Of a DNA stretch of 64,000 nt, positions 215-53,730 are shown in pieces. Location of the stretch: the NCBI GenBank assembly GCA_964016885.1, contig OZ024741.1, positions 218,860,001 through 218,924,000 on the forward strand. Direction: 5' to 3'. This DNA is from Eledone cirrhosa (lineage: Eukaryota). Both the position numbers and the translations under genes were made by a program. Numbering within the stretch: position 1 is the stretch's first letter; every line of letters starts with the position of its first letter. Under the pieces are notes generated by a model. That model was not told the DNA's origin, made no database searches, and saw only the letters and a list, made by a program, of their open reading frames with translations.

Positions 215-3180
215 TGTGTGTGTGTGTGTTTGAGAGAGTGTATGTGTTTGAGAGTGTGTGTGTTTGAGAGTGTGTGTGTGTTTGAGAGAGTGTATGTGTT
301 TGAGAGTGTGTGTATGTGTTTGAGAGTGTGTATGTGTTTGAGAGTGTGTGTGTGTTTGAGAGAGTGTGTATGTGTTTGCAAGTGTGTGTGTGTTTGAGAG
401 TGTGTGAGTTAGAGAGTGTGTGTGTGTTTGAGAGTGTGTGTATGTGTTTGAGAGAGTGTGTATGTGTTTGAGAGTGTGTATGTGTTTGAGAGTGTGTGTG
501 TGTTTGAGAGTGTGTATGTGTTTGAGAGTGTGTGTGTGTTTGAGTGTGTGTGTGTGTGTTTGAGAGTGTGTATGTGTTTGAGAGTGTGTGTATGTGTTTG
601 AGAGTGTGTGTATGTGTTTGAGAGTGTGTGTGTGTTTGAGAGTGTGTATGTGTTTGAGAGTGTGTGTGTGTTTGAGAGTGTGTGTATGTGTTTGAGAGTG
701 TGTATGTGTTTGAGAGTGTGTGTGTGTTTGAGAGTGTGTGTATGTGTTTGAGAGTGTGTATGTGTTTGAGAGTGCGTATGCGTTTGAGAGTGTGTGTGTG
801 TTTGAGAGTGTGTGTATGTGTTTGAGAGTGTGTGTGTGTTTGAGAGTGTGTGTGTGTTTGAGAATGTGTATGTGTTTGAGATTGTGTATGTGTTTGAGAT
901 TGTGTATGTGTTTGAGTGTGTGTGTGTGTGTTTGAGAGTGTGTATGTGTTTGAGAGTGTGTATGTGTTTGAGAGCGTGTATGTGTTTGAGAGTGTGTGTA
1001 TGTGTTTGAGAGTGTGTGTGTGTTTGAGAGTGTGTATGTGTTTGAGAGTGTGTGTGTGTTTGAGAGTGTGTGTATGTGTTTGAGAGTGTGTATGTGTTTG
1101 AGAGTGCGTATGTGTTTGAGAGTGTGTATGTATTTGAGAGTGTGTATGTGTTTGAGAGTGTGTGTGTGTTTGAGAGTGTGTGTGTGTTTGAGAGTGTGTA
1201 TGTGTTTGAGATTGTGTATGTGTTTGAGATTGTGTATGTGTTTGAGAGTGTGTGTGTGTTTGAGAGTGTGTGTGTTTGAGAGTGTGTATGTGTTTGAGAG
1301 TGTGTGTGTTTGAGAGTGTGTATGTGTTTGAGAGTGTGTGTGTGCTTGAGAGAGTGTGTATGTGTTTGAGAGTGTGTGTGTGTGTTTGAGAGTGTGTATG
1401 TGTTTGAGAGTGTGTGTGTGTGTTTGAGAGTGTGTATGTGTTTGAGAGTGTGTATGTGTTTGAGAGTGTGTGTGTGTTTGAGAGTGTGTATGTGTTTGAG
1501 AGTGTGTGTGTTTGAGAGTGTGTATGTGTTTGAGAGTGTGTATGTGTTTGAGAGTGTGTGTGTTTGAGAGTGTGTATGTGTTTGAGAGTGTGTGTGTGCT
1601 TGAGAGAGTGTGTATGTGTTTGAGAGTGTGTGTGTGTGTTTGAGAGTGTGTATGTGTTTGAGAGTGTGTATGTGTTTGAGAGTGTGTGTGTGTTTGAGAG
1701 TGTGTGTGTGTTTGAGAGTGTGTATGTGTTTGAGAGTGTGTATGTGTTTGAGAGTGTGTATGTGTTTGAGATTGTGTATGTGTTTGAGAGTGTGTGTGTG
1801 TTTGAGAGTGTGTATGTGTTTGAGAGTGTGTATGTGTTTGAGAGTGTGTATGTGTTTGAGAGTGTGTATGTGTTTGAGAGTGTGTATGTGTTTGAGAGTG
1901 TGTGTGTTTGAGAGTGTGTATGTGTTTGAGAGTGTGTATGTGTTTGAGAGTGTGTGTGTGTGTTTGAGAGTGTGTATGTGTTTGAGATTGTGTATGTGTT
2001 TGAGATTGTGTATGTGTTTGAGAGTGTGTGTGTGTTTGAGAGTGTGTATGTGTTTGAGAGTGTGTATGTGTTTGAGAGTGTGTATGTGTTTGAGAGTGTG
2101 TATGTGTTTGAGAGTGTGTATGTGTTTGAGAGTGTGTATGTGTTTGAGAGTGTGTGTGTTTGAGAGTGTGTATGTGTTTGAGAGTGTGTGTGTGCTTGAG
2201 AGAGTGTGTATGTGTTTGAGAGTGTGTGTGTGTGTTTGAGAGTGTGTATGTGTTTGAGAGTGTGTATGTGTTTGAGAGTGTGTGTGTGTTTGAGAGTGTG
2301 TGTGTGTTTGAGAGTGTGTGTGTGTTTGAGAGTGTGTGTATGTGTTTGAGAGTGTGTATGTGTTTGAGAGTGTGTATGTGTTTGAGAGTGTGTATGTGTT
2401 TGAGAGTGTGTGTGTGTTTGAGAGTGTGTGTGTGTTTGAGAGTGTGTATGTGTTTGAGAGTGTGTGTGTGTTTGAGAGTGTGTGTGTTTGAGAGTGTGTA
2501 TGTGTTTGAGAGTGTGTATGTGTTTGAGAGAGTGTGTATGTGTTTGAGAGTGTGTATGTGTTTGAGAGAGTGTGTATGTGTTTGAGAGTGTGTATGTGTT
2601 TGAGAGTGTGTGTGTGTTTGAGAGAGTATGTGTTTGAAGAGTGTGTATGTGTTTGAGAGAGTGTGTGTATGTGTTTGAGAGTGTGTGTGTGTTTGAGAGT
2701 ATGTATGTGTTTGAGAGAGTGTGTATGTGTTTGAGAGAGTGTGTATGTGTTTGAGAGTGTGTATGTGTTTGAGAGTGTGTGTGTTTGAGAGAGTGTGTGT
2801 GTGTTTGAGAGTGTGTATGTGTTTGAGAGTGTGTGTGTTTGAGAGAGTGTGTGTGTGTTTGAGAGTGTGTGTGTTTGAGAGTGTGTGTGTTTGAGAGTGT
2901 GTGTGTGTTTGAGAGTGTGTATGTGTTTGAGAGTGTGTATGTGTTTGAGAGAGTGTGTATGTGTTTGAGAGTGTGTGTGTGTTTGAGAGTGTGTGTGTGT
3001 TTGAGAGTGTGTGTGTGTTTGAGAGTGTGTGTGTGTTTGAGAAAGTGTGTATGTGTTTGAGACAGTGTATGTGTTTGAGAGAGTGTATGTGTTTGAGAGT
3101 GTGTATGTGTTTGAGAGTGTGTGTGTGTTTGAGAGTGTGTGTGTGTTTGAGAGTGTGTGTGTGTTTGAGAGTGTGTGTGC
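215..3180. repeat. Microsatellite-derived satellite, unit ~18-20 bp (GTGTGTATGTGTTTGAGA)
   Basis: Continuous tandem array visible directly; it produces the spurious 1012/1035-aa HT-rich ORFs. Confidence 0.95.
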
Positions 3181-11516: not shown

Positions 11517-11885
11517 ATAGTCTATAAATGTAATGTTAAAACTAAAGATTCTATTTGCTCATATATAGGAGCTACCTCTAACAATTTTAAGACAAGGTTT
11601 AATACCCACAAGCATAGTTTTAAAAATGCCGCACTGGCTAATACAACATCTCTAGCAGAAAAAATCAATAGTTATAAAAATAAGAATATAAAATATGATT
11701 TGACCTGGAGTGTGCTCAAAAGAGCCACCCCTTATCAAAATAATAGAAAGGAATGTAGATTATGTTCCCAAGAACTATTTGAAATAATGAAGTCTAAGGA
11801 TATCTTATTAAATAAACGACAGGAATTAATTATATCGTGTAATCATAAACTAAAAAAAACATTTAAATATTATAAACCTAATTAA
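11517..11885 (+). pseudogene. PLE C-terminal GIY-YIG endonuclease remnant
   Basis: Translates IVYKCNVKTKDSICSYIGATSNNFKTRFNTHKHSF...LTWSVLKRATPY...CRLCSQE...LLNKRQELIISCNHK; homologous to the C-terminus at 38338-38700. Confidence 0.9.
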
Positions 11886-23881: not shown

Positions 23882-24049
23882 TAGGAAACGGCAGAGCTCA
23901 AGCCGTTTCGACGACTATTTCTAGCCGTCGAAACGGCTTGAGCTCTGCCATCGGGTTCCTGAACCTTTTCCTATTACCCACTCTACTACCCAAAGTATTG
24001 AGTAACTCTGGTGCATTATGGTCCATCTGGTTCCTTACCACTTCCTTTG

Positions 24050-24050
<1 letters not shown>
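23882..24050 (+). mobile_element. Fold-back PLE/HHR-derived mini-element (family A)
   Basis: Imperfect palindrome GGCAGAGCTCAAGCCGTTTCGACG...CGTCGAAACGGCTTGAGCTCTGCC plus a tail homologous to 31545-31620; lies in (TA)n. Confidence 0.75.
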
Positions 24051-24096
<46 letters not shown>

Positions 24097-26149: not shown

Positions 26150-26340
26150 AGTTTATCGTGGGTTCAATCGGGGGTAACCACAGTAAGTAAGGTACTCAAT
26201 ACAAAGCAGAGTAGAAATATATAATATAGAAATGGCTTCTACAGGACTAGAACTGTTTCATTTGGGAGAAATCATCAGGAGGCCCTGATTTCTCCCGAAT
26301 GAAACAGTTCTAGTCCTGTAGAAGCCCCATTTATATTATA
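26150..26340 (-). mobile_element. Fold-back mini-element with a minimal hammerhead (26234-26284, minus strand)
   Basis: Palindrome at 26220-26340. Minus strand reads GGCCTC-CTGATGA-TTTCTCCCAAAT-GAAACAG-TTCTAGTC-CTGTA-GAAGCC (stem II is weak). One arm has a 70-nt tail; TA flanks. Confidence 0.7.
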
Positions 26341-26353
26341 TATATATATATAT

Positions 26354-31304: not shown

Positions 31305-31399
31305 CACTGGGTGTCCCCCCCCCCCCCCAAAAAAAAATGTCTACATACTTCAACAGAAAGGTAATCAAATCAAAGTGTGGATACATTTTGGGAGACACC

Positions 31400-31404
<5 letters not shown>
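31305..31404. mobile_element. Tiny Tc1/mariner-like MITE
   Basis: Imperfect TIRs CTGGGTGTCCC..AAAATGTCTACATACTT and AAGTGTGGATACATTTTGGGAGACACCCTG in a TA/CA context. Confidence 0.5.
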
Positions 31405-31427
<23 letters not shown>

Positions 31428-31430
<3 letters not shown>

Positions 31431-31620
31431 GGAACGAGTAGGACCCCGACGGCTGAGCTCAAGCCGTTTCGACGGCTAATTCTGGACAGAATTAGCCGTC
31501 GAAACGGCTTGAGCTCAGCCGTCGGGGTCCTACTCGTTCCTATTACCCACTCTACTACCCTAAGTATTGAGTACTTTGGTGCGTTATGGTCCACCTGGTT
31601 CCTTACCACATTTCCTTCGT

Positions 31621-31622
<2 letters not shown>
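31428..31622 (+). mobile_element. Fold-back PLE/HHR-derived mini-element (family A), perfect ~55-bp stem
   Basis: TAGGAACGAGTAGGACCCCGACGGCTGAGCTCAAGCCGTTTCGACGGCTAATTCT-GGAC-reverse complement, then a ~77-nt tail; (TA)n on both sides. Confidence 0.85.
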
Positions 31623-39669: not shown

Positions 39670-39672
<3 letters not shown>

Positions 39673-39832
39673 CGGAGGGAATGTGGTAAGGAACCAGGTG
39701 GACCATAACGCACCAAAGTACTCAATACTTAGGGTAGTAGAGTGGGTAATAGGAACGAGTAGGACCCCGACGGCTGAGCTCAAGCCGTCGAAACGGCTTG
39801 AGCTCAGCCGTCGGGGTCCTACTCGTTCCTAT
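39670..39832 (-). mobile_element. Fold-back mini-element (family A), opposite orientation
   Basis: Tail near-identical to 31545-31620 in reverse; the palindrome pivots at CAAGCCGTCGAAACGGCTTG. Confidence 0.85.
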
Positions 39833-40930: not shown

Positions 40931-41215
40931 ATCCGAACACAAATACTCGGGCATTTGTATAAACTCTATACGAATGCCCGAGTATTTGGGTTTCCTAATC
41001 TTTTTCAAACGCGAAACCCTTTTTGATTCAAAAACCTTGAGGGGGAGGGGACCCCCAAAGTCTACTACTGATATATGGTCGTAATATAAATATACACCTC
41101 TACCTTTTTTCACGTAACCCCAGACACGCCTTTGTGGAACCCACTTTGGGAACCACTGGTAGAGAGACATCAGGGCAACAAGAAGCCGACCATCGACCCC
41201 CCCCCCACACACACA

Positions 41216-41835: not shown

Positions 41836-41929
41836 TATGATATTAAATAAATGGAAACTATATTTATAAAACCATATTTATTCTATTATATATATTTCAA
41901 GGGAACCAAATATATATATATATATATAT

Positions 41930-42052
41930 AGGAAAATAGTCAGGACTCCGAGGCTGAGCTCCGGCCGTTTCAACAGCTAGATTCGAACAGTTCGGATCTA
42001 GTTGTCGAAACAGCCAGAGCTCAGCCGTCGGGGTCCTGACTATTTTCCTATA
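41930..42052. mobile_element. Fold-back HHR-half palindrome (family A')
   Basis: AGGAAAATAGTCAGGACTCCGAGGCTGAGCTC...GAGCTCAGCCGTCGGGGTCCTGACTATTTTCCT in (TA)n. Confidence 0.75.
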
Positions 42053-48503: not shown

Positions 48504-48577
<74 letters not shown>

Positions 48578-48581
<4 letters not shown>

Positions 48582-48983
48582 AAAAAGAGATGAAATCGAA
48601 AATGCAACTGGAGTGTTATTTTTTTTTTAAATATATATATTTATTTGGTTCCTTTACCCGTTTCGCAGTTCTTCTGCTTTTCAAAAGGTGAGTTGAGATG
48701 GAGGGTCTGTGGTTTTTCTCACATCTGTGAGAAAAACCACAGACCCTCCATCTCAACTCACCTTTTGAAAAGCAGATGTGAGAAAAACCACAGACCCTCC
48801 ATCTCAACTCACCTTTTGAAAAGCAGAAGAACTGCGAAACCGGTAAAGGAACCAAATAAATATATATATATTTTTTAAAAATAAGACTCCAGTTGCATTT
48901 TCGATTTCATCTCTTTTTCTTTATACTTTCACTCGTGTAGGACACCTCGGTTATTTTTCATTTTGTAAAAAAAACCTCACTTT

Positions 48984-53592: not shown

Positions 53593-53730
53593 TAGAGTGG
53601 GTAATAGGAAAGTGTCAGGACCCTGACGGCTGAGCTCTGGCCGTTTCGACAGCTAAATCCTCCGACAGTTCGGATCTAGCTGTCGAAATGGCCGGAGCTC
53701 AGCCGTGGGGGTCATGACTCTTTTCCTATA
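53593..53730 (-). mobile_element. Fold-back HHR-half palindrome (family A')
   Basis: Homologous to 41930-42052; retains the GACAG-TTCGGATCTAG-CTGTC-GAAA stem II at the pivot. Confidence 0.75.

Follow-up and report, generated by a model that had tools for sequence, protein, structure and literature searches.

A palindrome at positions 31428 to 31622 of a 64,000-nucleotide stretch of the Eledone cirrhosa genome (the window) carries the same part of a hammerhead ribozyme in both of its arms, and it turns back on itself inside that ribozyme. The locus raises the question of what kind of event makes such an element, and of what sets the point at which the two arms meet. The original prediction was that reverse transcription stalls or switches template at the ribozyme fold. 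We consider a different origin probable, in which the palindromes are stubs of a Penelope-like element (PLE) of the Hydra clade, made when twin priming at two internal reverse transcriptase (RT) start sites yields cDNAs that run off the transcript at its capped 5' end and are then joined head to head.

Fold-back copies in the window

Five related palindromes had been reported at or next to (TA)n; all of them were recovered at their sites and are real, and they fall into three subfamilies (Table 1). The focal copy contains a perfect 57-bp stem with a 2-nt gap between 31428 and 31543, followed by the 79-nt tail, and as an RNA its hairpin has a predicted folding energy of -130 kcal/mol. In tandem long copies of the parent element, the tail runs on into the 5' leader ahead of the ATG. 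Each of the five copies has the stem II 3' strand, GAAA, stem III, the GUC site, and the stem I 3' strand, in keeping with the expectation that the arms hold the 3' half of a type I hammerhead. The companion claim, that none of the copies has the CUGANGA half, stood only in part. The 5' core is indeed absent from all five, but the parent's own half mostly reads UUGANAA, so that a CUGANGA query misses it. A CUGANGA regular expression accordingly found no match in the window and the first 30 loci, because the core is of the U3-A8 type. The output of an inverted-repeat finder on the window was dominated by microsatellites.

Table 1. Coordinates of the fold-back copies and their parts (window positions)
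Feature	Positions	Strand	Description
Fold-back copy, focal	31428..31622	+	Subfamily A1; inverted short arm, forward arm, and tail
Short arm of the 31428 copy	31428..31487	-	Parent +2..+61; ends at the upstream putative RT start site, CCTAT; blastn against long copy L093
Forward arm of the 31428 copy	31487..31543	+	Parent +5..+61; one base common to the short arm; contains stem II 3' strand, GAAA (31501-31504), stem III (31504-31522), C17, the cleavage base (31523), and stem I 3' strand (31524-31528)
Tail of the 31428 copy	31544..31622	+	79 nt; spans the interval between the two insertion ends (putative RT start sites)
(TA)n target, left flank	31405..31430	.	Right flank begins at 31621
Fold-back copy	23882..24052	+	Subfamily B/D type; ~85% identity to the parent; internal deletion in the short arm
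Fold-back copy	39670..39832	-	Subfamily A1; left-hand tail; pivot at a short repeat further into the arms
Fold-back copy	41929..42050	.	Older subfamily C; two short ends (rare type), without tail
Fold-back copy	53593..53729	-	Subfamily C; tail truncated
Fold-back of a second, distant Penelope-like family	26150..26345	-	Arms contain a whole CUGAUGA hammerhead-like motif; pivot just upstream

Other repeats lie among these copies. An element of ~95 bp with short inverted ends (31308-31404), which resembles a MITE of the Tc1/mariner type, abuts the focal copy on its left, and a similar flank was seen at locus L016. The minus strand between 38338 and 39600 holds an RT-endonuclease (RT-EN) fragment of a related Hydra-like family, 50% identical to amino acids 282 to 701 of the parent; it is cut by (TA)n at both ends and adjoins the 39670 fold-back. 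A diverged C-terminal GIY-YIG fragment, with 45% identity to the parent, lies on the plus strand at 11517-11879 in very AT-rich surroundings. A short palindrome at 40940-40988, with arms of 18 to 22 bp, is unrelated. The TA-flanked palindromic repeat at 48560-48900 has a perfect core of 104 bp (48673-48776), one half of which is duplicated, and copies of it occur in many of the fetched loci; this is possibly a third fold-back family, with no hammerhead evident.

The parent element

A pattern just upstream of the pivot had 29,546 matches in the genome, and some of the 30 loci run on upstream without inversion. Thirteen regions were fetched, and several contain a long element. One of these regions, L093, contains between two TA arrays an inverted piece that terminates with the tail, a pLTR-bearing partial tandem, an open reading frame (ORF) of 719 amino acids, and a last pLTR ending in CCTAT. 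The outer ends of this long copy are like those of the mini fold-backs, one being a tail end and the other a CCTAT end. pLTRs from partial tandems, together with an inverted 5' piece and a one-sided tail, are present in L093, L091, L092, and L374. The inverted arms of long copies measure 0.5 to 1.9 kb, and the unit length, taken from the L093 coordinates, is ~3.5 kb. In the numbering used here, +1 is the A of TTAGTC (L093:3049), which places the two fixed insertion ends at +61 (CCTAT) and +140 (CGTTA). Loose ends running into TA were found at both of these positions in short-read contigs of run X1.

The single ORF (L093:3280-5439) encodes an RT followed by a C-terminal GIY-YIG domain, with the motifs YRDDG and VIYQ..YIG. 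The original prediction of a Penelope-like parent with a hammerhead in its pLTR was thereby borne out, as long copies carry both this ORF and the ribozyme. The L093 protein has 2,219 homologues, with identities of 38 to 54% among the 120 listed. A Pfam search gave no match for the 719-amino-acid ORF, and the piece from L091 gave only a weak GIY-YIG match (E 0.069). Another PLE-like RT-GIY-YIG ORF, in an inverted arrangement, lies within the fetched region L098.

In the accessible text of Craig et al. (2021; PMC8557442), the Hydra clade is defined by the motifs DKT and RW(K/R), a CxCX5C linker, CxxC/CxH, the absence of CCHH, and (TA)n targeting. The L093 protein has DKTG at residue 117, RWR, CNCx5C at 572 in the place of the CxCX5C linker, CNLC at 670, and CKH; only one cysteine lies between VIY and YIG, so that the CCHH cysteine pair is absent. 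Insertion into (TA)n was seen at all 30 loci viewed and, among the matches listed, in most of a sample of 100 exact tail matches; target-site duplications are unreadable inside such arrays. At one copy (L122/L068), the host flanks beyond the TA array are inverted repeats of each other. Judged by its motifs and by a match made by eye to the published supplement, the named members being compared by motif only, the parent is an endonuclease-bearing (EN+) PLE of the Hydra clade. A Neptune-like parent, first suggested by the cysteine linker, was dropped: Neptune and Nematis need a CX2-5CxxC linker together with CCHH, and the parent has CxCX5C and lacks the CCHH pair.

The hammerhead of the parent

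The features of a type I hammerhead (a 3-8 pair, GAAA, an NUH site, and stems I to III) can all be predicted in the parent from its sequence. The core of the long copies reads UUGANAA (U3-A8) in 24 of 32, with position 7 free, and UUGAAGA in 1. The other 7 read CUGAGAA and have a C3-A8 mismatch; they belong to one subfamily (L094, L119, L066, and others), and their sequence suggests that it spread with a ribozyme that was likely inactive. The U3-A8 variant has already been described in PLEs, according to the text available of Cervera and De la Pena (2014; PMC4209133). In an alignment of six copies, 91% of the pair cells are standard pairs. Three stem II pairs show two-sided change, all from one subfamily C copy, and 11 to 50 of 500 shuffles scored as high, which makes the statistical support weak. 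Rfam reported no hammerhead in the window among the matches listed (150 of 236), nor in the parent pLTR. Both the 5' core and the 5' strand of stem II are located upstream of +1; the stubs, being without the 5' core, are by themselves unable to form a hammerhead.

Copy number and independence of the insertions

Exact matches to the tail number 43,360 genome-wide, and those to the 3' half of the ribozyme 53,708. Reversed controls gave none, which places the family far beyond chance. The sample used here consisted of the first 100 of the 43,360 tail matches, which lie on one contig and were not chosen by their pivot. A script classed 75 of them as mini fold-backs with one short and one tail end, 11 as lacking an inverted arm, 9 as long, 3 as tail plus tail, and 2 as spaced. 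The two spaced rows are minis (L143 and L144), and the three tail-plus-tail rows represent one element seen from both sides and one borderline copy; all five were kept outside the 75. Overall, stubs outnumber long copies about tenfold.

All 40 of the scored genome candidates match 31431-31621 at 98 to 100% identity, and a single-master family was the first reading of this result. That reading was overturned by the junctions, of which the 75 mini fold-backs show 69 different ones. The junction of the 31428 copy, viewed in 30 loci, is shared by at least five subfamily haplotypes; the tail sits on one arm in 10 loci and on the other in 19, and its side is unclear in 1 (read by eye). Its motif has 1,198 occurrences in the genome, or ~3% of the tail matches, as is expected of a recurrent hot-spot junction. 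The palindromes had been proposed to be independent events and not copies of one master, and the junction counts and the two polarities bear this out; the single shared breakpoint that would mark an ordinary MITE was not what we found among the 75 copies. The ends are also asymmetric and the parent encodes an RT, features that set the stubs apart from MITEs. Nor do they have the form of non-LTR retrozymes, since their arms stand head-to-head and hold only the 3' half of the hammerhead.

The position at which the arms stop

Mapping of the 150 arm ends of the 75 minis, accurate to a few bases, placed 97 within the 13 nt between -4 and +9, and 11 upstream of -4, just 1 of them beyond -20. The base of stems II and III (+15 to +25) accounts for only 11 ends, and the vicinity of the cleavage site (+39 to +49) for 4. 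The pivots had been expected to cluster just upstream of GAAA instead of being spread uniformly, and so they do. The arms extend across stems I and III and GAAA, continue through the 3' strand of stem II, and end ~7 nt past it, at the same homologous A in subfamilies A and C despite their differing loop sequences. Matches to the 5' half of the ribozyme number 5,065 across the genome, against the 53,708 of the 3' half. In short-read contigs of run X1, which may be the source sample, summed depth (which is not copy number) rises ~20-fold from L093:3010-3030 to 3052-3072. Run X5, from another study, contains a 60-nt fold-back contig of the pivot region; a search of the short-read contigs for strand-change joints found only one fold-back contig.

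PLE transcription start sites lie in the pLTR, as reported in the accessible parts of PMC2377424 and PMC3846280. A TATA-like box is present at about -30 relative to +1 in subfamilies A and B and absent in C and D. The pivot A is initiator-like and is likely to be the transcription start of the pLTR. The pivot would then fall inside the hammerhead only because the start site of this family sits inside the stem II loop. Runs of up to ~20 T occur directly upstream of +1 at L075, L096, and L100 and are absent from long copies; these may be untemplated A added to the cDNA end on run-off.

The base immediately before +1 differs between long copies, where it is T or C in 27 of 27, and the genome-wide matches, where G (3,517) exceeds A (735); loci L001-L060, which had been picked by similarity, were left out of the comparison of long copies with minis. 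Among the first 100 of the G matches, 35 read TGG, so that the G there possibly comes from the partner arm, and the G was unexplained at ~19 of 30 loci viewed. Unpaired copies show the same base. Copies joined directly to (TA)n at +1 number 473, and another 225 have one extra base, which in the first 100 is G in 80, A in 13, and C in 7. At control position +4 there were 3 such matches, 1 of them with G. At control position +6, the unpaired copies (n = 62) had G in 30, T in 24, and A in 8, and the broad +6 control gave G in 544 and A in 617; the excess of G at +6 may represent a minor start site at the CA step or a general G bias, and the G excess is not perfectly specific to +1. In subfamily C the base before +1 was G in 25 and A in 7 of the first 100 matches, with only 2 of the 6 G loci viewed free of an explanation by partner arm or flank. 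An untemplated 5' G in L1 and SVA insertions has been read as a copy of the m7G cap (PMC4859970, in the text available), and by analogy we infer that the untemplated G at +1 is a copied m7G mRNA cap.

A second fold-back family as a natural control

The window also contains a fold-back of a second, distant Penelope-like family (Table 1), which has 2,428 genome matches. Three long regions were fetched for it, and one of them shows RT-EN homology of 32 to 44% to the parent. In long copies, the arm of this family starts 30 nt after the TATA box TATAAATA, upstream of the whole hammerhead, which argues that the pivot follows the promoter and not the ribozyme. The base before the pivot is G in 220 and A in 45, and unpaired copies with G directly after (TA)n were found at 7 of 20 loci.

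Pairing of the ends and a proposed mechanism

The two arms of a stub differ in how far they reach toward the 5' end of the element. In the 75 minis, the short arm reaches further in 32, the tail arm in 33, and the two are about even in 10. In 11 of the 75, the tail arm extends no further than the short-arm site, as in a classic twin-primed inversion. A stub nearly always combines one end of each kind. Fold-backs in 120 loci picked without requiring a tail (n = 46) had one tail and one short end in 45 cases (34 by script and 11 by eye), two short ends in 1, and two tails in none. Overall, 154 tail ends, 183 short ends, and 24 others were counted; with the two kinds about equally common, free choice would give many like pairs. 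The haplotype of a diagnostic segment is the same in both arms in 29 of 42 copies and differs in 13, mostly by single bases and in one or two by subfamily, so that the arms are nearly always of the same subfamily. A single template is therefore not universal, and same-subfamily arms could also reflect timing or gene conversion. At L182 and G000:C1:258516240, the two arms apparently come from different subfamilies, hinting at occasional events with two RNAs. The junctions of the 75 minis comprise 28 overlaps of 1 to 4 nt, 11 blunt joints, and 17 inserts of 1 to 4 nt. Both insertion ends share TAT with the target.

We propose that, in a single event, both cut strands of a (TA)n target would serve as primers for reverse transcription, which would begin at the two fixed internal sites of the element, and that both cDNAs would run off the capped 5' end of the transcript. 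The two cDNAs would come from one RNA, through twin priming by a dimer, and the centre would be closed by end-joining of the two cDNA ends, head to head, with short microhomology. A single RNA that offers each site once would explain both the pairing of tail and short ends and the shared haplotype of the arms. That the arms extend across the GUC site shows the template RNAs to have been uncleaved. The roughly tenfold excess of stubs would follow from the position of the start sites, because every RNA started in a pLTR would have them near its 5' end and only read-through RNA from tandem copies would have them behind an ORF. A more detailed version of this scheme is tentative and, in our estimate, rather doubtful as a whole. 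In it, an RT dimer engages both start sites of one capped transcript, one for each cut strand, and the main product of the element is a dead fold-back of its own leader, present in tens of thousands of copies that record the transcription start with single-base precision. Starting inside the hammerhead would give the mRNA only half a ribozyme at its 5' end and so protect it from self-cleavage, whereas the ribozyme of the 3' pLTR would be complete, and read-through of the hairpins would feed siRNAs against the parent.

Other explanations of the fold-backs

Several other processes could yield palindromes of this kind. The stall or template switch at the folded hammerhead, as originally predicted, now appears improbable. 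It would suit the location of the family 1 pivot within the stem II loop and the ability of long copies to fold a three-way junction, but a fold-stalled enzyme should stop before the helices, and arms that end past the last helix, with few ends at the 3' base (the 11 and 4 of 150 given above), speak against it. Moreover, the loop differs between subfamilies A and C and the stop is at the same A, the untemplated G is left unexplained, and the family 2 pivot lies upstream of an intact ribozyme. There is only a slim chance that one cDNA snapped back and primed its own second strand to give the mirror arm. Arms that are usually of the same haplotype would be expected of such an event, and some centres are tight loops of 1 to 3 nt; a copy cannot outreach its template, however, yet the short arm extends further 5' in 32 of the 75 minis. 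The tail arm never reaches the short-arm region in the 11 noted above, and unpaired copies ending in CCTAT exist.

Collapse of long inverted-repeat insertions through later palindrome instability, with the outer ends left in place, is also quite unlikely as a general origin. Long copies do have inverted arms of the required kind, microhomology of 1 to 4 nt is found at 28 of 75 junctions, and deeper pivots at short repeats, such as that of 39670, may well be such deletions. Collapse gives no reason, though, for a sharp, one-base upstream limit, for the extra G, or for the unpaired copies that start at +1, whether directly or after one extra base. Very little likelihood attaches to a nonautonomous, MITE- or SINE-like family copied from a few palindromic masters, although a minority of secondary masters may exist. 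The 40 near-identical full-length copies of 31428 and a frequent shared centre in subfamily C, the latter seen in loci picked by similarity, are what such a family would show; against it stand the number of junctions, the occurrence of the 31428 junction in several subfamilies with the tail on either arm, a copy number that a hot spot also predicts, and ends that are asymmetric, unlike terminal inverted repeats. Perfect palindromes are a known type of chimera, and run X1 may be the source sample, but an assembly or amplification artefact is scarcely credible for copies that are spread through the genome, end at fixed points within TA, and have diverged to degrees that reflect their age. The same end points also appear in short-read contigs, and a fold-back contig was found in the run of another study.

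Comparison with known systems

Read as twin-primed, run-off stubs of a PLE, the fold-backs amount to a naturally occurring collection of events, tens of thousands in number, which suggest that the two start sites are used in a coupled way and that the cDNAs run off at the cap. With them, DNA sequence is enough to map PLE start sites. Annotators should also take note, as these hairpins are by-products of insertion that look like MITEs or precursors of miRNAs.

Published accounts already describe inverted ends, one-sided tails, U3-A8 cores, and opposite-strand hammerhead pairs, and the accessible text of PMC8557442 and PMC11167929 states the origin of the inverted ends and the one-sided tail of PLEs to be open. 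As far as the available text of Craig et al. (PMC8557442) goes, the parent resembles the Hydra clade in its single ORF with RT and then GIY-YIG, its DKT, RW(K/R), CxCX5C, and CxxC/CxH motifs, the lack of a CCHH pair, its (TA)n targets, and its pLTR hammerhead. It differs in unit length, ~3.5 kb against "generally <3 kb" for the clade, and in having a U3-A8 hammerhead with a long stem II insert in place of a canonical one. The hammerhead listed there for Hydra-1_Obim has a different sequence from that of the parent, three 11-nt motifs of the family are absent from the supplement text, in which long runs are cut, and mini fold-backs as a dominant product are not described for the clade in the portions available. 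PLE insertions in general (Arkhipova et al. 2013, PMC3846280; Craig et al. 2021, both from the accessible text) share the inverted 5' piece, the one-sided tail, TATA- and Inr-like pLTR motifs, and short palindromes at the pLTR 5' end. Set against the account in the same part of PMC3846280, the stub tail is longer (79 nt versus 30 to 40), inverted structures without an ORF predominate (~10:1), and they are centred on a single position marked by a cap-like G.

According to the accessible text of Frangieh et al. (2024; PMC11167929), the Anolis Poseidon enzyme PAc cuts both target strands and extends each of them, takes uncleaved RNA as its template, and begins RT at two internal sites that delimit the tail; a dimeric form is predicted for it. 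The two start sites bounding the tail, the extension of both strands, the AT-rich target, and the uncleaved template are all shared with the family described here. No coupling of the sites is reported in that text, whereas one of each is used per insertion here (45 of 46), and the Anolis enzyme needs no target homology, whereas both ends here share TAT with the target. With the PLE hammerheads in the available part of PMC4209133, that of the parent shares the U3-A8 pair, an unpaired base at the 5' end of stem II, G10.1-C11.1, a long helix II, and a loop III palindrome. Pairs of hammerhead motifs on opposite strands, 100 to 700 bp apart, were noted in PLEs in the same source. Compared with these, helix III here is 5 to 6 bp (monomer-like), the putative start splits the ribozyme, and the stubs keep the 3' half only.

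L1 starts at poly(A), whereas both starts here are fixed, internal, and near the 5' end, and the overlapping arms therefore make up a palindrome. In L1, an inversion does not as a rule contain one segment twice. The likeness to L1 twin priming lies in two primings from one target break that lead to an inversion, and in an untemplated G that marks full run-off to the cap (PMC4859970, in the text available). Non-LTR retrozymes, as described in the accessible part of bioRxiv 10.64898/2026.07.22.740005, are likewise short, noncoding, PLE derived, and hammerhead related; they are head-to-tail tandems with complete ribozymes, whereas the stubs are head-to-head, are without the 5' core, and give no sign of a master. 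Start-site run-off or a cap G in PLE fold-backs was not found in our literature search, which covered the accessible parts of mainly open papers; such families may be catalogued in repeat databases. In the literature so covered, three features were not found: the stub as a product tenfold more common than the long copy, its pinning to a likely transcription start by a cap-like G, and the coupled use of the two ends.
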